A DNA stretch of 64,000 nt from an uncultured Acidobacteriota bacterium. Its GTDB lineage: Bacteria > Actinomycetota > Acidimicrobiia > Spongiisociales > ZC4RG35. This document shows positions 37,379-62,501 of this stretch, in pieces. The translations under genes and the position numbers were made by a program. The stretch's first letter is position 1. Each line of letters opens with the position of its first letter. The notes under the pieces were generated by a model. That model did no database searches and was not told the DNA's origin. It saw nothing but the letters and a program-made list of their open reading frames with translations. Where the stretch lies: assembly GCA_963778755.1 (NCBI GenBank), contig CAVZVJ010000002.1, positions 19,463 to 83,462 on the forward strand, given 5' to 3'.

Positions 37379-37517
37379 ATCTTTCGATGCTATCGGCCGA
37401 AGTTGACGGCTCATGAGCATCGTTTCGGTCCCAGCACTGGTAGGTGCGGTTGTCGATAGAGTTGAACGGCGGTTCAGTAAAACGAGGAGGAGCCTGTTGG
37501 CCAACGAACGCAGTGAG

Positions 37518-38676
37518 ATGTTGGAGAAGAGCAGCACGCTCTATTTCGGACCCTGGTATCGGCAGTCGCCCTTCTTCAAGTCGACCCTGGCCGCCGGCTG
37601 CTCCGCATATGACATCTACAACCACATGTATCTGCCGGCCTACTACGACGACCCGGATGTCGAGTACTGGGCCCTGGTCAACGGGGTGACGATGTGGGAC
37701 GTCGGGGTCGAGCGCACTGTGGAGGTGAGTGGCAAGGACGCGGATCGACTGATCGACTACATCACGTGCCGTGACCTGACCAAGTGTGCGGTCGGCCAGG
37801 GAAAGTACATGCCGGTGATCGCCCCGGACGGTGGGATCGTCAACGACCCGGTCCTCCTCCACGTCGCCGAGAAGCGGTGGTGGATGCAGTTGGCCGACTC
37901 CGACGCCGGGCTCTACGCCTTGGGTGTGGCCGCCGGGCGTTTCGATGTCGACGTCACCCTGCCGGATGTTCACCCGATGCAGGTTCAGGGGCCTTTGGCG
38001 GCCAAGACGATTGAGAAGCTGGTTGGGCCAACGATCTATGACATCAAGTACTACTGGCTGGCGGAATTCGACATCAATGGGATCCCGGTGGTGGTCAGCC
38101 GCACCGGCTGGACGGCGATCCCCGGGTTCGAGATCAACATCCTCGACCGAAGTGGGGGCGCTGATCTCTGGGACGCGGTTGCTGATGCGGGTGAGGAATT
38201 CGGGATCCGGCCGATCGCCCCCTGCGAGGCACGTCGGATCGAGGCCGGCATCTTCAATTACGGGTCTGACATGACTCTCGGCGACACCCCGTTCCATGTC
38301 AGCGGGATGGAGAGGTTGGTCGAGCCCCAGCAACAGGACTACCTGGGCAAGGATGCGCTGGAGCGTCTCCGGGAGACCGGCGTCGATCGCAAGCTGGTTG
38401 GCATGTTCCTCGAGGGCGACGAGTTGCGAGCGGAGTTGTCCGAGGTCTGGCCGGTGTTCTCCGGCGGCCGTCAGGTAGGAAGAGTCACGGACGCGGTGCT
38501 GGTCTCCAGGGCTTGAGCAGAACATCGGATACATGTGGGTTCCGATCGAGCTATCGGACCCAGGCACTCGTCTCGACGTGGTCACCGAAGACGGTGCGGA
38601 ATTGATGGCTGTGGTCGCCTCCTTGCCGTTTGTCGACCCGAAAAAGGAAGCCCCAGCACACAGCCTCAGGGTGTGA
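37518..38676 (+). CDS. Aminomethyltransferase (GcvT) family protein with a DmdA-like layout, apparent 1-nt insertion near the C-terminus
   Basis: The ORF is 37413..38516, with ATG 37518 the preferred start. It reads YDIYNHMYLPAYYDDPDVEYWALVNGVTMWDVGVERTVEVSGKDA...PMQVQGP. After ...GRVTDAV the +1 frame continues WSPGLEQNIGYMWVPIELSDPGTRLDVVTEDGAELMAVVASLPFVDPKKE to the TGA at 38676. The shift lies near 38493-38502. Confidence 0.75.
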
Positions 38677-38693
38677 GAGATAAGGAAGACGCA

Positions 38694-39086
38694 ATGGCCA
38701 TCGATCTGGAAAACTGGTTGGAGAGCTACCGGCGGGCCTGGGAGGAGAAGGACTCCAACGGCGCTGCCGCATTGTTCAGCGAGGACGCCACCTATCGATC
38801 GAACATCTTCGAGGATCCCTACCAGGGTCGGGAAGGTGTCTTCTCCTACTGGTCTGAAGTGACCAGCACCCAGGAAGGGGTATCGGTGAAGATGGGCCAG
38901 CCGTTCGTCGACGGAAATCGGGTGGCTGCCGAGTTCTGGACGGTGATGAGTAGTGAAGGCACGGAAATCACACTGCCCGGGTGCCTGTTGTTGGAGTTCA
39001 ACGACGACGGCCTCTGTCGAAGCCTCCGCGAGTACTGGCAGGTAGAGGTCGGGCCGCACACACCGCCGCCCGAGTGGGGAACCTGA
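38694..39086 (+). CDS. SnoaL-like/NTF2-fold protein
   Basis: ATG 38694 follows AAGGAAG. It reads MAIDLENWLESYRRAWEEKDSNGAAALFSEDATYRSN. Confidence 0.65.
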   Translation: MAIDLENWLESYRRAWEEKDSNGAAALFSEDATYRSNIFEDPYQGREGVFSYWSEVTSTQEGVSVKMGQPFVDGNRVAAEFWTVMSSEGTEITLPGCLLLEFNDDGLCRSLREYWQVEVGPHTPPPEWGT

Positions 39087-39097
39087 GTCCAGATCGA

Positions 39098-40181
39098 TCA
39101 GTCGGGACGCTTCACCCGACCGCCGACGGCGAGCGCAACCAGCCCAGAGATCAGGAGCAACGAACCGGCCGCCACCCACGGTGACGCGCTCGCCCCGGTG
39201 ACCGGAAGTATCTCCGCAGTCGTCGTGGTGGCCGGAGTGGTCGTGGTGGTGACGGCGGCGATACATGGCGGACGGGGGACTACTGATCCGGGAGCGGTGC
39301 TGAGACAGGCTTGGAGACCCAGGTTCGTCCCGGTGAAGACAGTGGCCCCGGCGTTCACCGCATAGGTGAAGGGATCCTGCAATCCGCCAACCAGGTTGGG
39401 ATCGGAGAGGTCGACCCAGATGTCACCGATGAACACTGGCTGCAATGCGCCGGGCGCGGGGACGGGTGGCGGTCCGTTGTTGGCGCATGGCCCAAAACCG
39501 AGATCGAACGGTGGGATTACGCCCACGGCGAATGAGTAGGTGTCAGGGAGGCCCGTGACCTGCCATTGCCCCGCCGAGTCGGTCATCGTCGGGATCACGA
39601 ATGGCGGCGAGGTTAGAACGTAGATGCAGGCTTGGGCTCACCGGTGCACCGCCTACCGTGATGACCGTGCCGGAGAGGGTGACTGACCCCAGGGGAGGCG
39701 CAGCCTGGAGGCCGTTGGTGCTGTAGGTCGCCACCGCTTCGCTGGCGGAGCTGGCGATGGCGCTGATGTTGGCTCCCGAACCAGGGTTCACGGCGGCGCC
39801 GACGTCGACGAACACCGACAGGGTCTGCGGGCTGTTCACACTCTGTCCGTCCCAATCACAGGTGACGGTTGTCGCCCCCTCGACGCAGTTGGTCAGCTGG
39901 GAGCTGGTCCCTGCGGGGTCGAGGCGAAGGGTGCCAAAGCTGGTGTCCGGGAACTCGATACCGACAGTGATCGGCCCGCTGTCGGCCGATAGTGAAAACG
40001 TCGCCGTGGCCGTGGCGGTCGACCCGGCGGGCACCGGATTGGGGCTCGGGTTGTTCATGGTCGCCGACAATTCAGGGATGATCGCCCATGCGGGAAGGGC
40101 ATATCCGATGACCAGGGTGGCAGTCGTCAGACACACTGCTCCAAGGCGCGCGTATCTGTTGCGATGCGAACTGGCATTCAT
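39098..40181 (-). CDS. Secreted surface protein with an LPXTG-like sortase signal, one apparent frameshift
   Basis: ORF 39543..40181 supplies the signal peptide (LTTATLVIGYALPAWA). ORF 39098..39598 ends LPVTGASASPWVAAGSLLLISGLVALAVGGRVKRPD. The join reads ...TLSGTVITVGGAPV then AQACIYVLTSPPFVIPTMTDSAGQWQVTGLPDTY (carboxypeptidase-regulatory-like), near 39630-39648. Confidence 0.7.
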
Positions 40182-43774: not shown

Positions 43775-43806
43775 TTGACGTATGCCATAATTGTGGCATA
43801 ATTGTG
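43775..43806 (+). promoter_or_regulatory. mazE promoter/operator: TTGACG-N16-CATAAT with a tandem CATAATTGTG repeat, placed for a leaderless transcript
   Basis: TTGACG lies at 43775-43780 and CATAAT at 43797-43802. CATAATTGTG occurs at 43786-43795 and 43797-43806, 11 bp apart. The ATG at 43809 lies 7 nt after the -10 element. Confidence 0.5.
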
Positions 43807-43808
43807 CC

Positions 43809-44045
43809 ATGGCAAGAGTGAGGGTAAGCACCACGGTGGATGAAGGCCTGCTTCGCGCTGCGAGGCAGGCACGTTTACAGATGAACGATGCGGCTCTGAT
43901 TGACGCGGCATTGACCGCTCTGTTGGCCGCTCACCAGGCGGAAGAGATCAACGCCGCATACGTGGCATACGACGGCCATCCGCTGAATGAGCCGGACGAA
44001 TGGGGCGACCTCGAGTCGTTCCGTGAGGCAGCTGGCTCGTCGTGA
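43809..44045 (+). CDS. mazE: Type II antitoxin, MazE-like
   Basis: It reads MARVRVSTTVDEGLLRAARQARLQMNDAALIDAALTALLAAH... Its stop overlaps the GTG of the toxin gene. Confidence 0.65.
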   Translation: MARVRVSTTVDEGLLRAARQARLQMNDAALIDAALTALLAAHQAEEINAAYVAYDGHPLNEPDEWGDLESFREAAGSS

Positions 44046-44366
44046 TGGACCTGCCGAGGAGGGGGGAGGTCTGGTGGTGCGAGCTGCCGCAGATCTCACG
44101 CCGCCCGGTCGTGGTCCTGTCCAGAAACGTCGGCCATTCCGAGACTGCGGCGGGCCCTTGTCGCTCCCTGTACGACCAACGTTCGAGGGCTACCGAGCGA
44201 AGTCGTTCTCGAGGCAGGCGAAGACCCGATCCCACGCCGGTCGGCCGTCAACCTCGACTCGGTCGAGAGTGTTTCCGTGGGCGTATTAACGGAACGTCTA
44301 GGCCGGCTCAGCGCCGAGCGAATGCATGAGGTTTGCTCGGCGCTGGCCGTTGCCGTCGACTGCTGA
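44042..44366 (+). CDS. mazF: MazF/PemK family endoribonuclease toxin, apparent 1-nt insertion
   Basis: It reads (M)MDLPRRGEVWWCELPQISRRPVVVLSRNV. The +1 frame continues AIPRLRRALVAPCTTNVRGLPSEVVLEAGEDPIPRRSAVNLDSVESVSVGVLTERLGRLSAERMHEVCSALAVAVDC. The shift lies near 44126-44136. Confidence 0.8.
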
Positions 44367-45454
44367 TCACTCGGGGGTCAGGGTGCTGACCTCGCTATGC
44401 GAGCTCGTGTAGAACAGCTCTCCGTCGGGAATGAAAGCGAGGAACGTCCAGAATTCGGGATCCAGGGTCTGGTCTGCCACCATCTCGCCGGTCTGGATGT
44501 CCCACAGTCGGTCCGATCCGGGCGATGAGGTACCGAGGAGGCCATCGCCGTTCATAGCGATGTCGATGACGATTTCGGAATGCGCCGACAACTTCTGCAC
44601 CGTCGCCTCCTCCACCGTCGCCCCGCCCACAAGGGCGTCGAAATCGAGGACCAAAGCAGTTCCGTCGAGGTTGGCCATCGCGAGGTACTTCCCGGTCGGA
44701 TCAAAAGCCAGCCTCAGCCCTTGATCGAGACCGGTGTCGCTCATCAAGGTGTGGCTCGACATGTCATATATCTCGCTGACAGTGGTTTCTGAATCCGCGG
44801 ACGGGTTGGCCACGATCGTCAAGTAGCGACCCGCTTCCGCGCCGCCAGGATTGAAGACCGCGTCGTGGATATAGCGCCCTCCGAGATCGAGGACCTCGGT
44901 GCCTGACGCCCATTGGATCACCCGACCCCGACATTCAGGATCGTCACCTCCGCTGAGAACCAATAGCGACCCGTCGGGGCTGAAGGCCTTGGGGATGGTG
45001 CAGTCCGGCAGTTGCTGCGGACAGCGGCTCGAACGACTCGAAGTCCCGGACCCAACCACCGCCTTCCGCATCAACCATCGCAACCAGACTCCAGTCAGAG
45101 CTCAACGCCTCGCCGTGTCGCCCAATGGAGATCTTGATTCTCGAAGTCCCGCAATTGTTCTCCGGAGCCAATGTCGTACACCCGAACCATGTTCGGCTCG
45201 GTGGAAAAGACGACAACCTGTGAACCATCCGGGGAAACCTCGACGCGATACGGGTACCCGGCTTGGTCCGGCTCCTGATCGAGATCGATCGCACCAGGGT
45301 TCGTGGGTATGGCTGTGGTGGTTTCCGCCACCGCCGGCGGGGTCGTGGTCGCCGTTGCCGTCGTTTGGTCTGTCGCTTGGGTTTCACATCCGGCCAGGAT
45401 CAACGTCAGGAAAAGGGTTCCGAGGATGGTTAGAAATAGCGGATCGATTTCGCA
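44367..45454 (-). pseudogene. WD40-like beta-propeller lipoprotein, read across three frame changes
   Basis: ATG 45454 follows AAAGGAG. The reconstruction is MRNRS then LFLTILGTLFLTLILAGCETQ...VEVSPDGSQVVVFSTEPNMVRVYDIGSGEQLRDFE, then IKISIGRHGEALSSDWSLVAMVD, then QLPDCTIPKAFSPDGSLLVLSGG...AFDPTGKYLAMANLDG... The shifts lie near 45440, 45140 and 45020. Confidence 0.65.
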
Positions 45455-45541
45455 TGTGCAGCTCCTTTCAGCTGCATGCGATACGACCCGATCACGTTGG
45501 AAAGCCGCTTGTGAACGGCTTGGAACTATGCCGAGGGCGGA

Positions 45542-48500
45542 TCAGTCGGCAGACTCGCAGGCCGTCTCCAGGTATCGCTCGCATTCCTCGGGGGTCAAAT
45601 CCCTCGTGACTCTGGTTTCAGCGAGCTTCGATGAGCGGTTCAGGGTCGAAGTTGAAGGTGCGAATCCCGCCGTCTCCGTAGAGCAGATAATCGCCCTCAG
45701 GGCCGAAGGTGCTGACCGGGGGAGCGTTGGAGCCGACATAGGGTTCGGCGATCATCGACCCGCTCGAACACGTCCCACGAGCCGAAGCGACCGTGCCGAT
45801 GTGGTGGCAAGTACCCCGTCGGCGTTGATCGCAACCCGCCAGAAGACGTCGTCTCCGCGGGGTTCTGAAGATGAGCGAGTCCTCCGGTGAGTTGCCTTCG
45901 AGAACCGCCACCATGTCGAGGACCCAGGCGTCCCCGCCGTCCATTTCCCCTCCGGCCAGGTATCGCCCGCGTAGGGTCGAAGGCGATCGAGACGGTGTTT
46001 GGGAACACCGGACCCATAACAGTTCTCCAGTCGACATGTCGTAGATCAAGGCGGCGGCAGCGGAAGAGTTATCGTGTGGACCAGCCGCAATCGCCAGATA
46101 GCGACCGGCCTCGAAGGTGCCGCCAGGATTGAATTTCGCTTCATTGAGGTAGTTGGCGGGCGAGTCCAGCAATTCGACGCCGGTTTTCCAATCGATCCGA
46201 CCACGCTGGGTCGTCGCAACTGCTCACGGACCAACAGATGGGTCGTCGCGCACATGCTTTCGGGTAGAGCAACGAGCAAGTCATCCTTCTCGGAGGTTGA
46301 AGCTCTTCGGGTACCAATGCAGTCGGGAAGGTCCGTCGATCGCGAAAGGTTGACGAGGTCGCCGTATCCAACGCGTCGCCATCGAGTAGCTGGCCAGATT
46401 ACGGACCAATCCGGCACCGTCGGGCGGATATCGAGAGCCTGATCTGGTCGAGGGAGCTCGAACTTCGCCGGTCACGACGTCGATCAGGTCAAACGATCCG
46501 CCCTTACTTTGGACAGCCAATTCCGCCTGCCGTCGGCCGATACGTCGATCTGGATGACGTCGTCGGGGTGCGGAAGCGGTCGATTCACGGGCGGCGGCCC
46601 GGCTGGTGTGACATCCCAGGTTCGGGCAGTTCCGTCGGTGCTGACACTGTGGAGATGCTCTCCATCAGAGTTGAACATCACGTCAAACACAATGCCTTCA
46701 TGACCGGCCAGAGTCCCGACATTGGAGAGAGACTCGGTCTCGAGGAGTCGTGACCTTGCCATCGTTTCCCGACACTGCACCAACCCCGAATCGGCGACAT
46801 CGAGTGCCGGGATATCAGTCGTCAGAGGTTCATCGGATTCGCTCCACCACGGTTTTCCGTCCCAGGTTCCAGGCCGCCACCGATCCCTGGCCTCGTCGGC
46901 AGTGATCAGACGGTTGTTTTGACCGATCCACGCGCCAACCGGTGGGGGTGCGAAGTCGATCGTGGCATCCGGTCTTGCTCGTTCACTCGGGACGTCGTAG
47001 GAGACGACTTCGTCGGCATCGACCGTGGGCCACCAGCAACGTCCTGTTGTCGAGGAAGGCCACGTCCAATTGGTGAGGGGAGTCGACGTCGTCCAAGGGC
47101 TTGCGAGAACAGTCTCGTCGCGTCGACGTGTCCCAGACCACTAACGGACGGTCGGAGTTGGAGACCGTCACCGCCAGATATGCACCATCGGGCTGGACCA
47201 GGCCATTCGTGAAGTGTGCTCGTCCTGAGGCAACCCGATCGGATACGGGTGAAGCTCGTTTCGCCGTTAGTCGGATCCCAGATGATGAAGACCGGCGTGT
47301 CGATTCGGCCCCGCCAGGTAGCCGACCGCCAGACGCCCATCGGGGCTCCAGGCGAGTCCTATCACCTCGCCGGGCCGGGCAAGTCCAATGAGAATCTTCC
47401 CATTGTCGAGATCCCAATCGAAACCTCTTCGAGGCCTCCTTAGGGGAGCCACGGTTGTCGGTAGCGACCAGTTCTCCGGCCGACCAGACCTCGACCTGTC
47501 GATAGCCACCATCCACCGCTCCTCCACGCGGGACGACCTGCACCGCGTTGTGCAACGCCGCCATCGTCTCTGCGGGACCTCCAGGCCCGCAGCGAGGGCT
47601 CGTTCGGCCGACTCCAACCGAGGAGTATCGCCAGTTCGGGGTCGGTGTCCAGGACGACTACGGAATCGGTCGCCAGCTCCCTACCAACGAGAGAACCTCC
47701 TCACGGTCCGCCTGATTGCGCTGGCTGAGAGCCAAACCACCCAGGGTTCCGACGACGACGAGAGCGCCGGCCAACGCCGCCAGGAGACCACGCCGCCTAC
47801 GCCGCCTCGCGTGCGCTCTCTTCCTGGTTGAGCGCCACGCTGGCGGACAGGTAGTCGGCCTCACTCCCGGAGATGGCGATCCCGCTCTCCTCCCGCCATC
47901 GCTCGGCCTGATCGAGACGGGCCCCCCGCAGCAAGATAGCTCGCGTTCCATGCCCGACTCGGCCCACTCCCCCGCGGCCGCGTTGATGCTCCGCTGAACT
48001 GTGAGATCGCCACGTTTGGCTTCCACCCACGAGCTCAATCTCCCCCATTCGGTGAGCAGAGCCTCGTGGGCGACCTCCACGGTCGGGCCCCGGTGTCACC
48101 GGATGAAGATCGAACGACAGAAGTCGAAAGGCGCCGAACTGCTGGAGTGCCTGGTCGAGAGCCATTTGGTCGATGGCAAGGCTTCTCAACTCGCTCTGCA
48201 GGATGCGGCGTCTCGTGGTTCCCGCCGTCTCGTCCACGGTTAGCAGACGTAGGAATAGTTGTTCGGTGGCCACCTGGCCCGCCGGAGACAGCGAGTCGTA
48301 TATCTCGTCGGCCCGTCGGCCCAGGGCCCCGAGGACCCCACCAGTCGACTTGTAGAGCTCGACGGTCAGCAGGTTTCCCTGTCGCTGGGAGAACATCTCG
48401 GTTAAGGCGTATTGCAGGAGCGGGAGACTGCCTGGCTGGCCTGCGACGTCACGAAGCACATGGTTGACCAGCCCTGGCTCGAGGTCGACGCCAACCCTTT

Positions 48501-50774
48501 TCGCCGGCCCGGAGACCGCCTGGGCCAGACCCTCTTCGGAAGGGAAGACTCACCGGGACCACTCCGCTTCTCATCACCTGAGCGAAGGCGGGATACTCGA
48601 GTGGTCGATCGAAGAAGTCTGCTCGCAGCGTCAGAATCAGCCGAACCCGGGATCGATCGTCACTGATGACGGTGGTCAGCGCGTCGAGGAATAGGCGGCG
48701 AGTCCCTTCGGACGCCACGGACGAGAACAGCTCTTCGAACTGATCGATGATCAACACCAGGTCGCTGTCGCTCCCGGGAAGGATCTGCTTGGAGATCCGA
48801 AGCAGCCCTCGCTCATCGGAGACCAGTTCGTCGACCAGATCCGGAGGGTTGTCCACCGCCACCCGTAACAGGGCTGCTCCCAGCTCCTCGAACGGATATG
48901 ACCCCGGGAACATGTCGGTGAAGAGCCATCCTCGCGAGCCGGGCAGGCCACCAGACCGCAGCGCCGGGATCAGCCCGGCCCGAACCACCGAGGACTTCCC
49001 GCTTCCAGAGGGCCCGACCACTGTCACCAGTCGGTTGGTTGCGAGAGCTCGCAAGAGTTCGTCGACCAGAGCTCCGCGTCCGTAGAAGTCGATGGCGTCG
49101 GTCTCGGTGAAGGCCCGGAGCCCTTTGTATGGGTTGCGCGGGGGAGCAGCCTGGGGCGGGGGCTGGTCGACATCTGCAACCGCCACCACGTCGGCTCCGA
49201 CCGCTCGTCGAATCGCCCTCAAGAGGTCGTCTGCCCGCTCGTATCGATTCATTGGCTGATCGTCGGTCGCCTTCGTCAACACCTCGACCAGCTCGGGGGA
49301 AAGATGTCCGTTCGATTCCACGGAGCCGGGGGTACCCGTCAGACAGTGCCGGGCCAGCACTCCCAGGCTGAAGATGTCCGATCGGGTGGTCAGCGGCTCC
49401 CCCCTCGCTTCCTCGGGAGGCAAATAGGCGAGAGAGGTGGTCACAGGTGCCCCCTCTTGGTCCGCCCGGCGAGCGGCGATTCCGAAGTCAGACAAATAGG
49501 CGTTGCCGTCGTCGTCGAGGAGGACGTTGGCCGCCTTGATGTCGCGATGGATCACACCGTGGCGGTGTGCATAGGACACCGCAGGCACCAACCTGCTCTA
49601 TGAGACGGAGCACCGGCGCCAGGTCCCAGGGCCCGTGACGAAGCGTGTCGGCAACACTCCCACCTCTGAGCAGTGGCATCACCAGATAGGCCCCCTCCGG
49701 CCCTCTCCAATAGTCGAGAAGGGTGACGATGTGGGGATGCTCCAACTCGGCGACGACTTGCGCCTCCGCCTCGAAGCGCCTGATGAAGTCGGCCCGGTTC
49801 ACGTATTCCGGTCGGATGAACTTGATGGCGGCCTCACGCCCGACGGAGGGCTGGAACGCCCGATAGACCACCCCGTAGTCGCCGATCCCGATCTGTTCTC
49901 TCAACTCAAAGCCTCGCACATTGGCGCCGACTACGGGTTCGAGATCAGTGTGCTCCTCCTCGTGGATCTTCTCGACCGTGGCGTCGACTTTGACGTCCAG
50001 TGTCGGGTCCTGCTCCAGGATCCGTTGCTCGAGGTCCTGGAGGCCCGGCGACGGGTTGATGCCCAGTTCCTCCCCGAGGAGAGTCCTCGTCTTCTGAAAG
50101 GCGCGCAAGGCGTCGGCCTGCTGCCCCGATCGGTAAAGGGCGAGCATCTGCATCTCCGCCATGCGCTCGCGGAAGGGGTTCTCCCGAACCAGGGTCTCCA
50201 GCTCACCGATCACTCGTCGGTGGTTGCCGAGAGCAAGCTCGGCTTCGATCCGGTACTCGACCGCTATCAAACGCATTTCCTCGAGCCGGGCGATGTCAGC
50301 GCTGAGCGCCGGCTCCCCGCTCAGATCTCCGTAGGGCTCCCCGTACCAGAGGTCCAAAGCTTGCTGAAGCAGAGTCTGAGCCGAAGCTGGATCGGACGCC
50401 AGGACATTCCTTGCATCGTCGACCATTCTCTCGAAGCGGAGGGAATCCAGCTTTTCGGAATCGACGGCGACCCTGTATCCGTCTCCCTGGCTGATGAGCT
50501 CCTCGCCCAGCTCCGCACGAAGGTGTGAGACGTAGCTGTGCAGGGTCGCCTTGGCCGCGTCCGGTGCCTCGCCCGCCCAAACCGCCTCGATCAGAGCGTC
50601 ACGGGAAACGACGCGGTTGGTACTAGCAAGGAGCACGGCCAGGACCATGCGCTGTCGTCGCCCACCGAGAACCAGGCTCTCTCCGTCCTGGACCGCACTG
50701 AGCGGACCAAGGATCCGATACTCCACGGTCTCAATGTTCGCGGAGACCGGTTCGTCACGCGCCGTTTCGGCCAT
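45542..50774 (-). pseudogene. Giant multidomain signalling protein: SARP (winged helix + BTAD), Ser/Thr kinase, nSTAND-type P-loop NTPase, one TM helix, WD40-like propeller. At least 10 frame changes.
   Basis: - SARP domain, about 50100-50774: VEYRILGPLSAVQDG...ALDLWYGEPYGDL.
- Kinase, about 49250-49960: GIGDYGVVYRA, AIKFI, HRDIKAANVLLD, DFG.
- NTPase, about 48080-49130: NPYKGLRAFTETDAIDFYGRG, VVGPSGSGKSSVVRAGLIPAL, LIIDQFEELF, VEVAHEALLTEW.
- TM helix, about 47730-47800: RRRRRRGLLAALAGALVVVGTLGGLAL.
- WD40-like repeats, 45542-47650: e.g. LAGHEGIVFDVMFNSDGEHLHSVSTDGTARTWDV, ending LTPEECERYLETACESAD.
- The pieces come from ORFs 49488..50774, 48449..49591, 47797..48459, 47658..48080 and many shorter fragments. 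Confidence 0.7.
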
Positions 50775-50838
50775 GTCGCTCAGTTTTCAATGTCTGGCTT
50801 GTAGATCGCTTGGAAGACGTTCGACGCTAGTTGTCGGA

Positions 50839-51609
50839 CTATTTCTGCCATCGTCCGATGAGAACCCTGTAGCCAGGAAGCTCACGGACGAACAGGCCGG
50901 CCTGATACGTGAAGGGCAGGGGGACGGGAAGCATCCGTGAGTCGGGTAGTCGAGGCATCCCGTTAACTGCCTCCCAGTGCTCTCCGTCGGCTGAGATATA
51001 CAAACTCAGATTGTTCGGTCTGAACACTGAGGGACCTCCGAAGGTCATCTTCATCCAACCGAAGTCTGTGGAAACCGGTTCTACTCGACGCCTCATCTCA
51101 GGGGAGCCCGGTGGAGGCGGCGGTGCGTTCAGTGGATCCTTCAACTCAACCCATTTGCCGTCGTGTCTGCTCAAGACCTTGACCCCATCATCTGACCTGA
51201 GAGTCACCCAGGTCACGCCGTCCACCTCGTAGAACTCGTGCTCGACCCCCCCGGCGGTGAACTCCGCAAGGGCGGCGTCTGGCGGTGATCCAAGGTCGCT
51301 CCAGACGATTCCATCGGCGGACGTCCACCAGGATTGGCGGTGATTTACATAGAAGACTCCGTCCAACCTGAACACGTAGGCCGCCCCGTAGGGGTATCCC
51401 CGGGCATAGGACCATTCGATGGTTCCGAGGCTCGTCTCAGAGGTAGCGACGCCGAGCTTTGCGTGCATACCCGGGACGACGACAATCGTTGTAGCGGGCG
51501 TCGACGGTGTGGGTTCCTCGGCTCGCCCATCTCGAGTCTGGCATCCGATCAATGACACCATCACCACGGCCCAGGCAAGTGGATTCTCGAGACGACGTGC
51601 GATCTTCAT
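50839..51609 (-). CDS. Lipoprotein with BNR/Asp-box (SxDxGxxW) repeats, paralog A
   Basis: Intact 256-aa ORF with the lipobox VSLIGC. Asp-box-like motifs are WTSADGIVW and YISADGEHW. It is homologous to the next two genes. Confidence 0.7.
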   Translation of the reverse strand: MKIARRLENPLAWAVVMVSLIGCQTRDGRAEEPTPSTPATTIVVVPGMHAKLGVATSETSLGTIEWSYARGYPYGAAYVFRLDGVFYVNHRQSWWTSADGIVWSDLGSPPDAALAEFTAGGVEHEFYEVDGVTWVTLRSDDGVKVLSRHDGKWVELKDPLNAPPPPPGSPEMRRRVEPVSTDFGWMKMTFGGPSVFRPNNLSLYISADGEHWEAVNGMPRLPDSRMLPVPLPFTYQAGLFVRELPGYRVLIGRWQK

Positions 51610-51637
51610 GACTGAGGCCTTTCCCTGCTAGGCGCCG

Positions 51638-52863
51638 CTATTCAGCGAAGCGGCCCGTCCAGACAGTTGGCACGGTGAAATTCCACCGTCGGACGAAGAG
51701 GCCACCCTGGTAGTCGAGTGGTGTCGGCGGGCCTGCGACAAAGCCCGATGGAGGACCTGGGGCGGTCCTTTGCTCCCAGTCCAATCCGTCGGAGGAAACG
51801 AGCAGTCTGAAGGTGTCCGGGTTGTACAGCCCGTCGTCGTATGGCTCACCCAGTGTCGTGATCATCCATCCGAAATCTGTTGGTTGCGGTGGTGTAGGCG
51901 ACCATGGGCTAACAAAGTTCCATCGGGTGTTCACCGGTTGCCATTCGACTCCGTCGGTTGAGGTCCACAGCTCCTGTGGTGCCCCGACAGAGAGCATGAG
52001 CCTCCCGTGTCCTGCGCTGAGATAGCCCCAAGACAGACTTGTCATTTCAGGGAGCTCTACGGTCTCCCAGTTGGTCCCATCCTCGGATCGCCACATGGTC
52101 AATCCGGCGGCGGCGCTGTTCATAATTTCAGCTGAGATCCCATAGATCGCCCCTTTGAGAGCGACCATTCCCGAACCCTTCCCACTTGGAGCGGGAACGG
52201 TCATGGGCTCACCACCGCGGATCACAACGGCCCAGTCGTTCATGCTGGCGTGGCGGTATATCCGAGCGTGGGGGACACCTATTGCACCCAGGTAGCTACT
52301 TGACGAACTCGATGTCCGGGAGGAGGCTTAGGCAACGTCACCGAAGCCTTGACCCAATTGGCTCCTTCCTTGTGGAGCAGTCTCAGGCGGCCATTGGTTG
52401 AATCGACGATGGCCCACGTCTCGCCTTCGTCTTCGAAGACCTGGAAATTGGAGCCTTCTGTATTGAACTCGGTCGGAGTCGAGGGCGGGGGTGAGGTCTG
52501 GCGGCTCCACTCGATCCCATCTGCTGAGATCCACCAACGACCATCGGACTTCGCGTAGTAACGGCCGTCAATCTGCAACCTTGTTGTCACCGACATCTCG
52601 AAGCTTGCCACCCTGCCCGGATAGGTCGGTGACGCGAACCATTCGAGTTTCCCCAGACCGGTCCAAGCGGATGTCATCGGCTTGTCCGTCGGGACCACGG
52701 TGCTTGGTTCACTCGTAGCAACTGCTGTCGTCACGCTGGCCGACGACGCGGATGTGATCGGGGCTTCGGCGTTGTCCTGACATCCGGCGAGCATGACCAT
52801 CCCCACTGTGAACAAGATCGCCGTCGGAAGGTGTCGCCGCTTGGTCGTGTCTCTGCTTTCCAT
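51638..52863 (-). CDS. Lipoprotein with BNR/Asp-box repeats, paralog B (two apparent frameshifts joining ORFs 52279..52863 and 51638..52243)
   Basis: Lipobox VMLAGC. Motifs are WISADGIEW, WRSEDGTNW, WTSTDGVEW and VSSDGLDW. The join reads LPKPPPG, then IEFVK, then SYLGAIGVPHARIYRHASMNDWAVV, near 52285-52305. It is colinear with paralog C. Confidence 0.65.
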
Positions 52864-53073
52864 CCCTCCCTATCAACCTGACCGCGGTGGTAGGACTCTT
52901 GTGATCTGCTTGAAGGCCGCCATCGAACAAGCGTGGAAGGCGGTCGCTTCCTGGCCGGAACGCCGCCTTCGATAGGTTCCATGGGCCCGTCTGCAAAACG
53001 GGCGACCCAGGCGGCGGAGAAACCGCGGAGAAGTGCGGCTTAGACCGACCAGCCGGTTTGGTCAATCCAGTAG

Positions 53074-54288
53074 TTATTCAGTGAACTTGCCGACCCGGAC
53101 CTTGACGCCGTTGATATCCGAATAGCGAACGAACAGATCATCCTGGAAGGTGAGCTCGTTCCGTCCGCAACAGATATAGCCCCCACTAAGGCGGGGAACT
53201 CCCACGCTCTGCCAATTCAGACCATCAGGCGATACGAGCATTGCGAACTGCTTGAGATTGAATTGCCCATAACCAAGTGGTTCACCGTGGTTGACGATCA
53301 TCCACCCAAAATCGGTCGGTAGCGGTGGAGTGGGGCCTGACATGCCTCCAACACCGGCTACTTCGACTGGCTGCCATTCCACGCCGTCAGGGGAACTCCA
53401 GATCTCCTGGGGGGCCCCAACCGAGAGCATCAAACGGCCGTGCCCGGCGGTGAGGTAGGCCCAGGACAGCCTGCTCGGGGACATTTCCGGGAGGTCCACC
53501 GGCGCCCATTCGACACCGTCCTCCGATCGCCAGACGGTGAATCCGGAGGCGCCGCGGCCTTCGATTTCGACCGAGACCCCGTACACCGCGTTGTTCAGCG
53601 CAACCATTCCCGAGCCGTTGCCGTTGGGATCAGGCACCGTCATCAACTGGTCACCCTGCGTCACGACGGTTGAAGCGGGTGCGCCTACGCCCGGGAAGGT
53701 CTCGCCGGCGATTCTGCGAGGGATCCCGTTCACCAGGATCGCCCCCCGATTGGCCTTCACCAACTCGATTCCGGGTGGAGGCTGGGGAGTGGTGACCGGC
53801 ACTTCCGCCCAGTCCTCACCTTGCCGGTGAAAGAGCCTGATCGCCCCGATGGTGGGAGCAAGAGTCGCCCAGGTTTCACCGTCGAGCTTCGAACATCTCG
53901 AAGTTTGACCCCTCGGAACTGAACTCCGGTGGAACGACATCTGGGGCGGACGCCAGTTCACGCCATGCGAGACCATCGGGCGAGGTCCACCAGCCATGCT
54001 CGGATTCGGCGTAATAGGTCCCGTCGAGACGAAACGGCGTTGATGTCGGATAGGGGTATCCAGGGGAGTTGTACCACTCGATCACCCCCACGCTCGTCAT
54101 CGACTTCTCGACTGGCTGGGGAGTCCAGGACGCTGGTGGTGGGACTGGACGGGGCCGTGGTGCGTGGGCTGTGGTCGTTGCCGATGGCCCTGCGCATCGG
54201 TTCCTCGGTCTGGTAACTGGCAGCCGACCAGCAGCGCCGCCACCAAGGTCAGGCCAATTGTGTTCTGCAAGTACCGGTGACGCCTCAT
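53074..54288 (-). pseudogene. Lipoprotein with BNR/Asp-box repeats, paralog C (about three frame changes)
   Basis: ATG 54288 follows AAGGAG, giving MRRHRYLQNTIGLTLVAALLVGC. Motifs are WTSPDGLAW, WRSEDGVEW, WSSPDGVEW and VSPDGLNW. The shifts lie near 54205, 54100 and 53885. Confidence 0.65.
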
Positions 54289-54425
54289 CTTCGGTCTCCT
54301 TTCAACTCGAGTCTGAGCCAACCCGATGGTGTTGGACGCAACCTTGTGACTTTCTTGGAGGCCGGTCCGAAATGGAGAAAGGGGGCGGGCCGGGCCCGCC
54401 CCCTTTCTCCAGGCAACCCGAACGG

Positions 54426-55378
54426 TCAGTTTCGAGTGGTCACGTAGATGTCGCCTGCTCCGGTCCGGGTCGAACCGAAGTACAGAGTCTTCCCATTCGA
54501 GGAAAGGCTGGGCCGAGTGTCCGAGGCCGCACTGTTCACCAGCGGTCCAAGGTTCGCCGGCGCCGACCAGGGGTCGGTGACCGATGCACGTGTGGCCGAG
54601 TAGATGTCGTTGCCCTGCGCTCCCGGGCGGTTGCTGAAGAAGAAGATCTCCTTCCCGTCCTTGCGCACGTTGGGCTGACCCTCGACTGCATCCGTGTTCA
54701 AGCCTGGGACCTGGGTCGCCACCTGGAACGAACCATGGTGGGAGCGGCTGACATAGATGTCGCCGCTGCCGGTCCGGGTGCTCGAGAAGTACAGCAACAA
54801 GCCATTCTTCTTGTCACGCTGCGGGAACGGGCTCGCCTCGTCGGACCCACTGTTGGGCCCGCCGTCGACGTCACATGCCAGGTGCTTCACCGGGGCGAAT
54901 GCCGGACGGTTGGGATCACCGAGTTGCAGTGCCCCCTTGTCCTTCAGCTTGGTGACATAGATGTCGGCGTTGGCGGCCGTGCCGCAATAGCCGGCCCGAT
55001 TACTGACGAAGTAGAACGACTTGCCGTTGCGTGCCAGCGTCGGGCAGAAGTCGGTTCCTGATCCGAGTTCACCGGAGCACCAACATTGTGGGCCGGTCCC
55101 CACGGGTCTGACTTGTTGGCCCGAATCGAAACCCAGATGTCGATCTGGCCCAGCCCGCCCGGTCGGGTCGATGCCATGAACAGCATCTTCCCGTCAGGGC
55201 TGATGAATGGGCACCCGTCCAAGAACCCATCCGTATTGAACGCTGGATCGGTGCCAGGAAGGTCCTGAACCCGTTGTGCCTGGCCCCACGGACCGAATCC
55301 GCCCATGGCCAGTGCCACGTTCGAAATCGAGGTCAGCATGACGGCCAGCAGCACAGCTATCCATTTGCGCCTGCTCAT
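54426..55378 (-). CDS. Secreted TolB-like (PD40 repeat) beta-propeller protein, one apparent frameshift
   Basis: ATG 55378 gives MSRRKWIAVLLAVMLTSISNVALA (signal peptide). PD40-type repeats are PFISPDGKMLFMASTRPGGLGQIDIWV, NGKSFYFVSNR, LLLYFSSTRTGSGDIYV, DGKEIFFFSNRPG and NGKTLYFGSTRTGAGDIYV. The join lies near 55060. Confidence 0.75.
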
Positions 55379-55509
55379 CACATCTCCCTTCGAGACAGAG
55401 CCCACCGAATTGGTGGCAAGTGGATATGGTATGGCCCTGCTCTTGGAGTGCTCTTGGAGTTCAGTGGCAGGGGTATCCAGAGCCTCGGTTGAGCCGCTAA
55501 CGGCATCGG

Positions 55510-57516
55510 TTGATAGATTCCGGCGTCCCAGCAGGAAGTCGAGGCGGAGCGGTGGCTCTCACTGAATCGGACCTCACAGACGGCTTGGACGCAATGGCCA
55601 GAAATGACTGGGGCCAGGCGTATCAGCTGCTCCGACTCCTGCTCGCAGACCCGGATGCGCCCCCGGAACACCTCGAGGCGCTCATGGAGGCCTCGTGGTG
55701 GGTTGGTCATATCGACGATTCGATTGCGGCAGGCGAGAGAGCGGCGAACCTCTATTCGTCCTTCGACCGCAACGCCGACGCAGCACGGGTCGCCATCCAC
55801 GTGGCCGAGAGCTATGCCCAGCGACTCCAATCTTCGATCGCGAACGGGTGGATGAGACGGGCTGCTCGATGGTTGGAGGGCGCTGAAGAAACCCGGGAGT
55901 TGGGTCAGCTCCGCAGACTGGAGGCAATGCTCGCCGCTGGATCCACGGAGGGCCTTGGGCAGGCGCTCGAGCTGGTGAGCGAAGTCGAAGCGATCGGGGC
56001 CCGCACCGGGGACAAAGACCTCGAGATGCTCGGACTCCATGATCGGGGGCGGTTCTCGGTCTATCTCGGAGCCATTGACGACGGGATGGCAATGATGGAA
56101 GACGCCATGGTGAGCGTGGTCGCCGGAGAGCTGCGCCCCAGGACGACGGGACGCATCCTGTGCAACATGATCGAGGTCACTGCCTCGATGGCGGACTACA
56201 AGAGTGCGAGCGAGTGGAGCGATCAGGCAACGCGGTGGTGTGACTCGATCGGAAATGCTGGCGGTTTCCCGGGCGCGTGCAGGGTTCACAGATCGGAGTT
56301 CATGCGCCTGCGCGGCGCATGGTCGGCTGCTGAGAGTGAAGCGAACCGCGCTGCCGACGATCTCGCCGACATCCGCCCCTATCAGGCGCAGGCATTCAAT
56401 GAATTGGGAATGATCCATCTCAACAGGGGGGACCTCGACGACGCCGAGGGCGAATTCCGGAAAGCGCATTCACTCGGGTTGGCCCCGATGCCGGGCTTTG
56501 CCATGTTGTCACTGACTCGCGGGGACATCTTGGGCGGTTGGGCCATGATTGAATCGGCGTTGGCCGGGACGGGCGCCGACCTTGCGAGGGCAAAGCTCAT
56601 TCCACCTGCGATCGAGATCGCCCTTGCCGCCGACATGGTCGACGATGCGAAAGTTCTGGCAGGTGAACTCGGCGAAATCGGAGAGCGGTATCAGTCCGAG
56701 CTGCTTGGAGTCTTTGCCTTGCAGGCTCAGGGGCGAATTGCGGCGAAGGAAGAGCGATTCTCGGATGCCATGGCTCCATTGCGCGAAGTCGTTGAGAAGT
56801 TGGTTTCTTGGGGAATGCCCTATGAGGCAGCACGGGCCAGATGCGACCTGGGTCGGGTCTTGATGGAGATGGGGTCCGACGCGCTCGGATCGCTCGAGAT
56901 CACAGCGGCGAGAACAGAATTCGAACGACTCGGCGCCAATCCCGAATTGGAGCGTATTTCCACGATTGCCGTCCTGTCCGACAATCAGGTTGTGAATCGA
57001 TCACTAACCACGATGATGTTCACGGACATAGTTGATTCGACGAAGCTCATCGGCCTGATCGGGGATGAGGCCTGGGCTGATCTCATCTCGTGGCACGATC
57101 GCACCATTCGTGGACTGCTGCAGACCCACGGCGGCTCGGAGATCGATCACGCGGGCGACGGGTTCTTTGTCTCGTTCCAGTCGCCACAGGAAGCGTTGAA
57201 GTGTGCGTCTGAGATCCAGGTCGTTTTACGGGCTCATCGCAAGGAGTCTGGGTTCGCACCTCGGGTCAGGATCGGGGTTCATGCTGGCGAAGTCCTGGAG
57301 TCGAATGGTGGCCTGGTGGGCACGGAAGTCCACGCTGCGTCACGGGTGGCCTCGGCCGCCGCGGGCGACGAGGTCCTGGTGTCCAGCTCGACGACAGAGG
57401 TCGCCGGCGACGGCTTCGAGTTCAGTGATGAAGTCGCGATCGAGGCCAAGGGCATGAGCGAGCCGATTCGGGTTCGAAACCTCATCTGGAAGTATCCCGC
57501 ACCCCCGGCATCCTGA
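55510..57516 (+). CDS. Class III adenylate/guanylate cyclase with a long N-terminal helical (TPR/MalT-like) region
   Basis: Intact 668-aa ORF; the start is uncertain. The C-terminal catalytic domain reads TTMMFTDIVDSTKL...HAGDGFFVSF...RIGVHAGEV. Confidence 0.8.
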   Translation: MIDSGVPAGSRGGAVALTESDLTDGLDAMARNDWGQAYQLLRLLLADPDAPPEHLEALMEASWWVGHIDDSIAAGERAANLYSSFDRNADAARVAIHVAESYAQRLQSSIANGWMRRAARWLEGAEETRELGQLRRLEAMLAAGSTEGLGQALELVSEVEAIGARTGDKDLEMLGLHDRGRFSVYLGAIDDGMAMMEDAMVSVVAGELRPRTTGRILCNMIEVTASMADYKSASEWSDQATRWCDSIGNAGGFPGACRVHRSEFMRLRGAWSAAESEANRAADDLADIRPYQAQAFNELGMIHLNRGDLDDAEGEFRKAHSLGLAPMPGFAMLSLTRGDILGGWAMIESALAGTGADLARAKLIPPAIEIALAADMVDDAKVLAGELGEIGERYQSELLGVFALQAQGRIAAKEERFSDAMAPLREVVEKLVSWGMPYEAARARCDLGRVLMEMGSDALGSLEITAARTEFERLGANPELERISTIAVLSDNQVVNRSLTTMMFTDIVDSTKLIGLIGDEAWADLISWHDRTIRGLLQTHGGSEIDHAGDGFFVSFQSPQEALKCASEIQVVLRAHRKESGFAPRVRIGVHAGEVLESNGGLVGTEVHAASRVASAAAGDEVLVSSSTTEVAGDGFEFSDEVAIEAKGMSEPIRVRNLIWKYPAPPAS

Positions 57517-57554
57517 GTCGACCGCGAGCTAGCCTCCGGCTCCTCGAACGGAAA

Positions 57555-57962
57555 GTGCGATCGACAGTGGATGCAAGTCGGCTCGGATCAGTCCCCCTTT
57601 TTGCCGAGCTCTCACGCAAGGATCTCAAGGCGGTTGCACGCCACGCCGACGAGGTCGACCTCCGCGAGGGGGCCAACATCGTCGAGCAGGGGCGACTGGC
57701 CTACGAGTTGTTCGTGATTGAGAGCGGGACCGCCGATGTGCAGATCGACGGATCGGTGATTGCACAACTCGGCCCTGGCGATGTTGTGGGGGAGATAGGC
57801 GTACTCCAGACTCACATGCGAACTGCCACCGTGGTTGCCACCTCGCCGGTCAAGGCCATCGTCATCTACGGCCCTGAGCTGACGGCGCTCACCGAAACTA
57901 TGCCTGGGGTCTTCGCCGAGCTTCAGCGTTTGATCACGGAGCGAACCGCCAGAAGCGGCTGA
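57555..57962 (+). CDS. Cyclic nucleotide-binding domain protein (stand-alone)
   Basis: 135-aa ORF reading VPLFAELSRKDL...GPGDVVGEIGVLQTHMRTATVVA. Confidence 0.85.
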   Translation: MRSTVDASRLGSVPLFAELSRKDLKAVARHADEVDLREGANIVEQGRLAYELFVIESGTADVQIDGSVIAQLGPGDVVGEIGVLQTHMRTATVVATSPVKAIVIYGPELTALTETMPGVFAELQRLITERTARSG

Positions 57963-58064
57963 CCGACTTACCACGGGGACATTCCCTGCGGCAAAGGCGG
58001 GTAGTGTGAATCACAGACCCGAATCCGGTCCCGGGTTCGACAACAAGACTTGGTGGAGGTTCAC

Positions 58065-58733
58065 GTGAAGATGTCCCGCATGATTGCTCTGGTTTCGGTG
58101 CTGCTCCTTATCGCTGCCTGTGGAGGGGCCGACTCGGGAGGAAGCACGACGGCCCCTAACGCGGTGACAACTTCCGAGGCTGTCGAGGTCACCACCGTTC
58201 CCAGCGAAGACGACCCGGGAGTGGCGAGTCTCGAGGACATGCCCGCGGAGTGCATTGATGCCTTCCGCAATTTCCTGCAGGCGATTGAGCCAATCATTCA
58301 GGACATCGATTTCCAGAACTCGACGATGAACGATCTCGATGCCCTGTCCGAGCAGCTGCAGCCGATCAGCGACTCCTTCGAGGCAGAGACCGCCAACTGC
58401 CCCGAGCTAGACATGTCCAGCGAGGAGAGCATTGCAGCGATGCAGGCAATGGCCGAACGTGATGCTCCGGGAACCGCCGCCTACTTCGCGTGGCTCGCCA
58501 GCTTGATGGCTAGCGTCGGCGACGGAGGGGGAGCGACAGTCTCCGGCGATTGTGAGACCGATATTGCCGCCATGCAGGAATACATCGATCGGGGAGGCAC
58601 CATGTCCGACCTCACCATGGGCGAGCTCACGGCGGTCAGCACGTTGATGTCGGCTTTGGCCACCGAGTGTTCGGCCGAACGATTCCAGGAATGGGCCGAG
58701 CAGGCGGACGTGGCGGCGTTCTCCGGCGGCTGA
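58065..58733 (+). CDS. Acidic hypothetical lipoprotein
   Basis: GTG 58065 lies 5 nt after GGAGG. The lipobox is LLLIAAC. The protein is Asp/Glu rich and has several Cys residues. Confidence 0.6.
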   Translation: MKMSRMIALVSVLLLIAACGGADSGGSTTAPNAVTTSEAVEVTTVPSEDDPGVASLEDMPAECIDAFRNFLQAIEPIIQDIDFQNSTMNDLDALSEQLQPISDSFEAETANCPELDMSSEESIAAMQAMAERDAPGTAAYFAWLASLMASVGDGGGATVSGDCETDIAAMQEYIDRGGTMSDLTMGELTAVSTLMSALATECSAERFQEWAEQADVAAFSGG

Positions 58734-58747
58734 GGTCCCTTGCTCGG

Positions 58748-59270: not shown

Positions 59271-59319
59271 TTGCGGGCAAACGGTAGATAGCTGTCGCCC
59301 GATAGCGTATTCTCCCTGC

Positions 59320-59335: not shown

Positions 59336-59362
59336 ACAGAGAGAATAATGGAGGTTTCGTTC

Positions 59363-62497: not shown

Positions 62498-62501
62498 GGG
62501 A

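Follow-up and report, generated by a model that had tools for sequence, protein, structure and literature searches.

ToxR and CadC are membrane-anchored activators in which a cytoplasmic OmpR-family winged helix, one transmembrane (TM) helix, and an external sensor are combined. Among the receptor Ser/Thr kinases of Mycobacterium tuberculosis, PknD carries an NHL propeller and PknB carries PASTA domains, and the PknH-EmbR pair has a SARP as its target. Single-pass Ser/Thr kinases with periplasmic WD40 or TPR domains are found in Planctomycetota (PMC11032199). The published classes of SARP comprise only small, medium (with NB-ARC), large (with NB-ARC and TPR), and SARP-LAL proteins, and AfsR, a large SARP of Streptomyces, is phosphorylated in trans by the Ser/Thr kinase AfsK (PMC10972967). 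The NTPase family nSTAND1 received its name in a study of predicted counter-invader (conflict) systems (Kaur, Iyer, Burroughs and Aravind 2021; PMC8195603). In the Esr pathway of oral Actinomycetota, a surface WD40-propeller protein, EsrA, acts through Ser/Thr kinases on a transcriptional response (bioRxiv 2026; PMC13622651). In this work, we analyzed a 64,000-nucleotide stretch of contig CAVZVJ010000002.1 (hereafter, the window) and found on its minus strand, at 45542-50774, a gene whose predicted product joins a SARP module, a Hanks-type kinase, an nSTAND1 NTPase, a TM helix, and tandem WD40 propellers. This gene probably represents a widespread, uncharacterized family of single-pass (type-II, N-in) receptors that is found mainly in Actinomycetota, with a member of ~1,730 residues here. 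No description of a SARP-kinase-nSTAND1-TM-WD40 protein was found in the literature searched, and NCBIfam has no model for the architecture, all of its matches being far below cut-off.

The family resembles AfsR in its N-terminal winged helix-turn-helix (wHTH) and bacterial transcriptional activation domain (BTAD), in the combination of SARP, STAND-class NTPase, and C-terminal repeat sensor, and in the presence of a Ser/Thr kinase in the pathway. However, AfsR has NB-ARC and TPR where the window family has nSTAND1 and WD40. Furthermore, the kinase of the window family is fused in cis between the SARP and STAND parts, and its TM helix is predicted to part STAND from external repeats. Like it, PknD and the planctomycetal receptor kinases have one TM helix between a cytoplasmic Hanks kinase and a beta-propeller sensor outside the cell, and the PknH-EmbR pair likewise places a SARP downstream of a Ser/Thr kinase. 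Unlike these receptor kinases, the window family has a STAND NTPase of ~450 residues between the kinase and the membrane and carries its transcription factor in the same chain.

The likeness to Apaf-1 and the nSTAND1 conflict systems consists of a full-length PF20703 domain with invariant Walker A and B motifs, tandem WD40 repeats as in Apaf-1, and an N-terminal output domain. Instead of a caspase, TIR, or peptidase effector, that output consists of a DNA-binding activator and a kinase. The predicted position of the sensor is on the other side of the membrane from the NTPase, unlike in Apaf-1 and other classical STAND proteins. By description, the Esr pathway is similar in its diversifying surface sensor of the WD40-propeller class, its Ser/Thr phosphorylation relay, its transcriptional output, and its occurrence in Actinomycetota. 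However, it is a multi-protein system (secreted filamentous EsrA, separate kinases, and an FHA protein) linked to vWA-MoxR and Esx genes, and it has neither a STAND NTPase nor a SARP. ToxR and CadC, also by description, have the same N-terminal cytoplasmic winged helix, one TM helix, and external sensor domain, but are small and lack a BTAD, kinase, or NTPase.

Domain architecture of the reading unit

Read on the minus strand from 50774 to 45545, the unit encodes in colinear order a wHTH and BTAD (together a SARP module), a Hanks kinase, nSTAND1, an Arg cluster with a TM helix, a helical stalk, and tandem WD40 repeats. The first-pass annotation, which was made from the sequence alone, had proposed one colinear architecture with this domain order, and every domain that it named was found by Pfam profiles and motifs at the minus-strand positions listed here:

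45542-50774, minus: whole reading unit; ATG start at 50774, stop codon at 45542-45544, ~1,730 codons once frames are corrected
50460-50663, minus: winged-helix DNA-binding domain (OmpR-type, SARP), residues ~38-105; from Pfam Trans_reg_C and the AfsR/EmbR alignment
50004-50459, minus: BTAD, residues ~106-257; Pfam BTAD, full profile 1-146
49202-49910, minus: Hanks-type Ser/Thr kinase, residues ~289-524; Pfam Pkinase in two frames, with a 1-nt insertion at 49583
47952-49138, minus: nSTAND1 NTPase, residues ~546-940; Pfam nSTAND1 in three frames, with frameshifts at 48544 and 48093 and another at 47944, just past the domain
47724-47807, minus: Arg cluster and predicted TM helix; RRRRRR at 47807-47790 and a 22-residue uncharged hydrophobic helix, GLLAALAGALVVVGTLGGLALS, at 47789-47724; from hydropathy
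47505-47723, minus: predicted extracytoplasmic helical stalk with a DPELAILLG motif, from the TM helix to the first blade; from the AlphaFold2 (AF2) model of an intact homolog, P0004
45545-47504, minus: tandem WD40 propeller region with the Cys-containing C-terminal motif LTPEECERYLETAC; from Pfam, the repeats, and the AF2 model of the homolog

The copy as assembled is not translatable. No single open reading frame (ORF) runs from start to stop, the longest minus-strand pieces between 50774 and 45542 have 428, 380, and 220 aa in three different frames, and a stop-free path needs at least 10 frame switches according to a homology-free calculation. Judged from its sequence, the region is one gene for a protein of ~1,730 residues and not several genes. 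The pieces cannot be separate genes because the frame changes cut inside the Pkinase profile (between positions 94 and 107) and twice inside the nSTAND1 profile (between 184 and 188 and between 329 and 332). The ORF list does contain distinct pieces initiated by ATG, GTG, or TTG, as a row of neighboring genes for a SARP regulator, a kinase, an NTPase, and a WD40 protein, each with its own start, would have. However, these pieces overlap or abut with no intergenic space, and dozens of homologs are single ORFs of 1,680-1,780 aa. We therefore give separate genes next to no chance, and the earlier claim that the unit holds no independent genes stands.

The N-terminal part belongs to the SARP family, in which PF00486 is followed directly by PF03704. 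Trans_reg_C (PF00486) was matched at residues 38-93 with 39.6 bits (cut-off 26.2, E 5.6e-10) and BTAD (PF03704) at residues 109-253 with 145.2 bits (cut-off 22.1, E 2.4e-42, profile 1-146), which bears out the OmpR-type winged helix and BTAD of the first-pass annotation. The best PDB sequence match of the two domains is AfsR residues 25-278 (8k60, E 1.7e-46; also 8jke and 8hvr), and they also align with EmbR (2fez, E 2.5e-36). The protein as a whole falls outside the large-SARP/AfsR subclass, its NTPase being nSTAND1 and its repeats WD40. The NCBIfam AfsR model NF053617 scored 190 bits against a cut-off of 1430, with only model positions 18-279 matched.

The kinase profile (PF00069, cut-off 31.7 bits) is split into positions 1-94 (53.9 bits, E 2.2e-14) and 107-201 (73.8 bits, E 1.9e-20). 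The stitched translation contains the G-loop GIGDYG, the Lys of AAIK, FEAEA, HRDIKAANVLL, and SDFG, so that all the motifs first claimed for it (an intact G-loop, VAIK-like Lys, HRD, and DFG) are there. By fold and motifs, the domain is a Hanks-type kinase, and the catalytic motifs of the window copy are complete. It matches PknA/PknB/PknD models and its N-lobe aligns with a PknA structure; the NCBIfam kinase matches are all far under equivalog cut-offs.

The nSTAND1 profile (PF20703, cut-off 27.1 bits) was found in three frames at positions 1-184 (168.4 bits, E 4.7e-49), 188-329 (130.9 bits, E 1.2e-37), and 332-377 (44.3 bits, E 2.5e-11), which cover 1-377 of its 379 positions. These scores, together with NPYKGLRAF, Walker A GPSGSGKSS (49015-48989), and Walker B LVLIIDQFEE (48760-48725), place the domain in the nSTAND1 family and agree with the P-loop STAND signature (NPYxGLxxF...GPSGSGKSS) noticed earlier. 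A comparison with PDB sequences detected no solved relative of this region. An AF2 model of the homologous region had a predicted local distance difference test score (pLDDT) of 89.7, with an N-terminal part of alternating strands and helices followed by helical and short-strand segments. Its fold neighbors are Cdc6/ORC-type AAA+ proteins, NOD2, NRC1-3, ZAR1, and Apaf-1 (E 5e-8 to 1e-5). The general STAND plan, in which a core of nucleotide-binding, helical, and winged-helix domains precedes a repeat sensor, was also found, the WD40 repeats lying C-terminal.

Membrane topology and the propeller region

The helix GLLAALAGALVVVGTLGGLALS has a Kyte-Doolittle mean of 2.22 over 19 residues, and it is the sole peak of at least 1.6 in the stitched protein. 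The hydrophobic segment is conserved in 110 of 122 sequences, most members having a single peak of 2.0-2.95 near residue 1000, and the uncharged core averages 21.6 residues among the homologs. Lys and Arg average 7.2 per 15 residues on the N-terminal side and 3.3 on the C-terminal side, the former being higher in 109 of 110 sequences. The segment was first proposed as a TM helix from the window alone, and the single strong peak, its conservation, and this charge difference all argue for that. By the positive-inside rule, the N-terminus would be inside and the C-terminus outside.

An even number of Cys residues is a known mark of disulfide-bonded exported proteins in Actinobacteria. In family members, Cys density is 0.53% after the TM helix and 0.10% before it, and the number of Cys after the helix is even in 87 of 91 full-length members, most often four. 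A C-terminal motif, [DE]Cxx[YFW]x4-14C, occurs in 72 of 93. The propellers, if outside, are probably stabilized by two disulfides. Furthermore, proteins of a sister subfamily (described below) carry SBP_bac_1, an extracellular solute-binding domain, after the TM helix, and a cyclase, which needs ATP or GTP, before it. These features are those of a single-pass receptor with its N-terminus in and C-terminus out, and we regard this topology as a strong prediction, with the N-terminal ~1,000 residues cytoplasmic and the C-terminal ~700 outside.

The alternative is that the helix does not span the membrane or that the topology is reversed, so that the WD40 part is cytoplasmic as in Apaf-1. Classical STAND proteins do hold their repeat sensor in the compartment of the NTPase, and the propeller model described below matches Apaf-1 too. 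This arrangement is nonetheless improbable given the uncharged core of 21-22 residues with hydropathy of 2.0-2.95 and strong positive-inside bias, the Cys parity, the solute-binding domain that follows the helix in the sister subfamily, and the lipoprotein next door that carries a paralog of the propeller. Periplasmic WD40 domains on single-pass Ser/Thr kinases are also documented in Planctomycetota (PMC11032199). The placement of the sensor outside the cell, as originally put forward, is thus well supported as a prediction by charge bias, Cys parity, the lipoprotein paralog, and the sister subfamily.

In the window, one WD40 repeat exceeds the Pfam cut-off (28.7 bits against 27), accompanied by many matches to beta-propeller families. 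The repeat consensus FSPDG...WD..TG occurs ~14 times, and intact homologs have ~14 blades. The window copy is too frameshifted for direct modeling, and the assignment as a WD40 tandem beta-propeller comes from the AF2 model of the post-STAND part of P0004 (776 residues, 63-row alignment; pLDDT 91.7, predicted template modeling score 0.88). In this model, one long helix spans the Arg cluster, the TM segment, and the start of the stalk, and two more helices follow, so that helices 2-66, 71-87, and 94-106 precede the first strand. The ~56 strands that come next make 14 blades, and two short C-terminal helices bear the Cys motif. The best PDB match of the propeller part is 2ymu_A ("highly repetitive propeller structure", E 1e-30), followed by tandem-propeller proteins including Apaf-1. 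The external part is thus modeled as a helical stalk with two seven-bladed WD40 propellers, and the multi-blade WD40-like propeller of the first-pass annotation is upheld by the Pfam matches and by this model. The sensor diverges faster than the rest, as identity among homologs is 21-44% in the C-terminal part and 55-89% in nSTAND1.

Downstream of the large gene lies the exported propeller mentioned above:

44367-45403, minus: WD40-propeller lipoprotein; lipobox LILAGC, start uncertain, frameshifts at ~45118 and ~45015

This frameshifted gene has a Pfam WD40 match (E 1.2e-8), and its product matches residues 1485-1687 of P0001, the best database homolog of the large protein, at 40%. Its ortholog in a syntenic relative, L003, has the signal peptide MRSRSVSRITLGPLCLALLLAGC and a propeller that shares 36-52% identity with the last propeller in the large L003 protein. 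The claim that an exported paralogous propeller adjoins the gene therefore holds for lipobox, WD40 matches, and paralogy. It does not extend to the family, as the neighbor was found only in the close relative L003, and the context of P0004 has an unrelated downstream lipoprotein; it is lineage-specific.

Other exported proteins are encoded nearby. Tandem paralogous lipoproteins lie directly upstream of the large gene (window 50839-54360, minus; L003 7386-8672 and 8814-9917), with lipoboxes LIGC, LAGC, and LTGC, a repeated WxSxDGxxW resembling Asp-box/BNR, and no Pfam matches. They are intact in L003 (429 and 367 aa) and broken into pieces of 194-307 aa in the window. Next to them is a PD40 (TolB-like) beta-propeller protein with a hydrophobic N-terminal segment (window 54429-55450, minus; L003 6125-7291), whose gene has two frameshifts in the window. 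With the PD40 protein, these lipoproteins, and the WD40 lipoprotein, the locus is rich in exported propeller-type proteins. Also, an antitoxin-like ORF (84 aa, no Pfam match) is followed by a PemK/MazF-like toxin (PF02452, E 2.9e-8) at window 43791-44363 (plus); the toxin gene is frameshifted near 44100-44150, its N-terminal part being in another frame.

Frame breaks and the state of the gene

Frame breaks were located by frameshift-aware, protein-guided alignment, with P0001 (65% identity) and the L003 ortholog as guides. L003, the nearest relative of the window, is CAVRWT010000006.1 of isolate MFD02242.bin.2.214, and a genome-collection scan found it to be ~82-87% identical to the window in nucleotide sequence. 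It is labeled "uncultured Acidobacteriota bacterium", yet the family is otherwise found in Actinomycetota and Chloroflexota, so its label or binning may be wrong. The number of frameshift events is 16-34 against P0001, depending on the penalty, and 24-32 against the frame-corrected L003 ortholog (80% amino-acid identity), with 24 still remaining at a very high penalty. The robust sites, supported by alignment to P0001 and the L003 ortholog, are as follows:

49583, 48544, 48093, 47944, 47817, 47677, 47615, 47577, 47423, 47302, 47258, 47193, 47021, 46893, 46862, 46527, 46454, 46248, 46021, 45969, 45863, 45778, 45762, and 45629, minus: frameshift sites

The first 3.1 kb (SARP, kinase, and nSTAND1) contains six events and the last 2.1 kb (stalk and propellers) at least 18, the propeller region being the most heavily frameshifted with ~18-25. 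The indels examined at the nucleotide level are single-base changes in otherwise conserved sequence, and gene lengths are preserved. Two other ways of placing or counting breaks were set aside: the phase signal of a plot of GC content at third codon positions is too weak at 62% GC, and raw blastn gap counts between the window and L003 are inflated everywhere by compensating 1-nt gaps at ~80% identity. Programmed frameshifting was also rejected, as the sites are far too many, none is shared with L003, and slippery motifs do not recur.

On balance, we favor single-base consensus errors of a noisy long-read metagenome assembly as the source of these breaks, with the gene intact in the organism. 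Natural decay of bacterial pseudogenes is reportedly deletion-biased (a finding ascribed to Mira, Ochman and Moran in 2001). The events here are all single-base, with lengths kept and no larger deletions, and insertions outnumber deletions by 28 to 13, which is the opposite of that bias and counts toward assembly noise. The L003 ortholog has 7-11 breaks of its own, none at a position where the window has one. [quoted passage not shown] With intact L003 ORFs as guides, all eight of the other window genes tested in 29-64 kb were found to be frameshifted, with a total of 17 events over 8.34 kb (2.0 per kb). These genes encode a GcvT-like enzyme, a SBP_bac_11 solute-binding protein, an ABC ATPase with TOBE, a Zn-dependent alcohol dehydrogenase (Zn-ADH), the PD40 propeller protein, two lipoproteins, and a peptidoglycan-binding protein. 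After frame correction, the ratio of non-synonymous to synonymous substitution rates (dN/dS) against L003 is 0.18 for the SARP part, 0.06 for the kinase, 0.12 for nSTAND1, 0.20 for the TM helix and linker, and 0.43 for the propeller, with dS ~0.64. Purifying selection has acted on the gene during most of this divergence.

Several observations weigh against an intact gene, and speak for real frameshifts in a decaying pseudogene that would form, with the lipoprotein and the MazF-like toxin, a degenerating accessory region. Besides the 24-32 frameshifts, there is an in-frame stop at 46224. The propeller has ~8-9 frameshifts per kb, ~4x the 2.0 per kb of the neighboring genes. Indel density is uneven, as the left 37 kb of the window is mostly free of breaks and has ~13 kb of intact real genes. 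In L003, the genes on either side of the broken large gene are intact. Homopolymers of 4 or more show no enrichment of frameshift sites, and the adjoining lipoprotein and PemK-like toxin genes are broken as well. The gene is a frameshift hotspot in two assemblies, and random error alone is insufficient to explain it. Decay is nevertheless doubtful, though possible, because each neighboring gene tested is broken, metabolic and transporter genes included, because of the single-base events with their insertion excess, because dN/dS is 0.06-0.2 in the cytoplasmic domains with catalytic motifs intact, and because the breaks differ between the two MAGs. For consensus error, the cause that we infer is poor consensus from mixed reads of paralogs or co-existing strains, since the family is multi-copy in some genomes, the sensor evolves fast and is internally repetitive, and the adjacent gene encodes a paralogous propeller. 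The contrast in indels between window 1-37000 and 44000-64000 suggests a local coverage change, strain heterogeneity, or a chimeric join.

Elsewhere in the window, the intact genes of the left part (436-835 aa) encode DAO-GcvT, RACo, an ABC permease, DcuA/B, an amino-acid permease, M20, MFS, and Ppx. An ATG-initiated ORF of 854 aa (36702-39266, minus) was considered as a sign of intact sequence and rejected. It has no Pfam match, lies antisense to a GcvT-like aminomethyltransferase gene (37413-38673, plus), and is probably a spurious high-GC frame. The GcvT-like gene has 94% identity with its counterpart in L003 and a frameshift at ~38499. A P-type cation ATPase is split into overlapping ORFs of 708 aa (21628-23754, plus) and 409 aa (23471-24700, plus) in different frames, which is probably a further frameshift near 23.5-23.7 kb. 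An ABC transport operon at 59360-62000 (plus), with SBP_bac_11 and an ABC ATPase with TOBE, looks like a molybdate/sulfate type and has two frameshifts per gene relative to L003. With ~2 single-base indels per kb over the right-hand 20-35 kb of the window, gene calls there are untrustworthy without re-polishing.

Family distribution and possible function

With the stitched N-terminal 1,052 residues as query, 5,557 proteins were found at E<=1e-20. Among the best 120 matches, 93 have at least 1,600 aa, and nearly all combine PF00486/PF03704, PF00069, PF20703, and WD40 families according to the precomputed Pfam lists of these best matches, from which our architecture counts are taken. In the 40 loci that were fetched, the ORFs are uninterrupted (1,300-2,080 aa) and have the hydrophobic peak at the equivalent relative place. 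Existing JGI and NCBI annotations of such proteins read [quoted passage not shown] or "BTAD domain-containing putative transcriptional regulator". Orthologs that share the fusion are thus abundant and keep the same domain order. The first-pass annotation had taken the arrangement to be unusual; this overstated its rarity, since it is found commonly in sequence databases, albeit not in the literature searched.

Full-length forms are distributed among Acidimicrobiia (including Ilumatobacteraceae), Gaiellaceae/Thermoleophilia, Egibacteraceae, Jiangella aurantiaca, and many unclassified Actinomycetota MAGs. In Chloroflexota (Anaerolineae, Phototrophicaceae, and Kouleothrix; loci L024-L051), there is a form without SARP that consists of kinase, nSTAND1, TM helix, and a tail of ~700-800 aa. 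From this SARP-less form, the transmembrane STAND core appears to be older or more mobile than the SARP fusion. The sister subfamily has the order SARP, adenylate/guanylate cyclase, kinase, nSTAND1, and TM helix (at ~residue 1170), followed by a predicted external part of ~580 residues with SBP_bac_1. Its domain content was checked in P0036, P0072, and P0082, and loci L007, L008, L010-L012, L014, and L032 were grouped with it by TM position and tail length alone. Sensor modules, either WD40 or a solute-binding domain, are thus exchanged between subfamilies on one cytoplasmic chassis. Some genomes have several copies (L048/L056 and L039/L041).

The two catalytic domains are conserved to different degrees. 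All 62 homologs compared keep the Lys/Ser of Walker A and the Asp/Glu of Walker B, and the kinase retains the catalytic Asp in 40, the VAIK Lys in 54, the DFG Asp in 57, and the HRD Arg in 28 of the same 62. About half of the members are therefore non-RD (HGD) and about a third lack the catalytic Asp, which points to pseudokinase members.

Given the history of nSTAND1, the gene may instead encode an immune or conflict STAND sensor, similar to NLR or Avs proteins, that detects an invader and kills or arrests the cell through its kinase rather than acting as a transcriptional receptor. nSTAND1 was defined in predicted counter-invader systems in which S/T/Y kinases are among the effector domains (PMC8195603), and in Actinomycetota a surface WD40 sensor that acts through Ser/Thr kinases provides defense against epibionts (PMC13622651). 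The fast evolution of the sensor (dN/dS 0.43 against 0.06-0.18, and the identities given above) and the several copies in some genomes are also consistent with such a role. However, PADLOC-DB v2 returned only generic kinase-domain matches (PD-T4-6, mad6, MkoA, and PglW), which all fall within residues ~280-590, and nothing that matched a STAND part or a whole system. No defense-system partner genes or conserved defense-type neighbors were seen in three contexts (L001, the P0007 contig, and L003). Furthermore, the N-terminal module is a transcription activator and not a toxin-type effector, and an extracytoplasmic sensor cannot see intracellular phage proteins. We consider a conflict sensor of this kind unlikely, and the earlier suggestion of a conflict or surveillance module gained no direct support from these searches.

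For a transcriptional receptor, we propose that an external ligand would bind the fast-evolving propellers and that the stalk and TM helix would convey the signal inward to the nSTAND1 switch, leading to nucleotide exchange and oligomerization. Oligomerization of nSTAND1 could juxtapose the kinase domains for trans-autophosphorylation. The same event may activate the SARP module, which would recruit RNA polymerase at target promoters while the protein remains membrane-anchored, as ToxR and CadC are. The relay from AfsK to AfsR, or from PknH to EmbR, would thereby be collapsed into one polypeptide. The lipoprotein propeller may serve as a co-receptor or decoy in this lineage only. Two points weigh against this scheme: the signaling mechanism is entirely inferred, and the loss of the catalytic Asp in a third of the members means that phosphotransfer cannot be a universal output. 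Because of this loss, the universal core is probably the NTPase-SARP axis and not phosphotransfer.

More speculatively, the family may be viewed as a "transmembrane NLR", in which an external WD40 ligand would drive NTP-dependent oligomerization inside the cell and so switch on the fused kinase and the tethered SARP. Such a single polypeptide might act as a surface surveillance receptor, possibly for envelope damage, competitors, epibionts, or adsorbing phage, and its output would be directly transcriptional. If true, transmembrane signaling would have been shown for a STAND for the first time.

If the topology and coupling hold, a sensor across the membrane can drive a STAND (NLR-type) switch, and a SARP activator can work while membrane-tethered. 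The AfsK/AfsR, PknH/EmbR, and receptor-kinase themes would then be joined in one chain. The family is widespread in soil Acidimicrobiia, Thermoleophilia, and their relatives, and one characterized member would annotate thousands of proteins.

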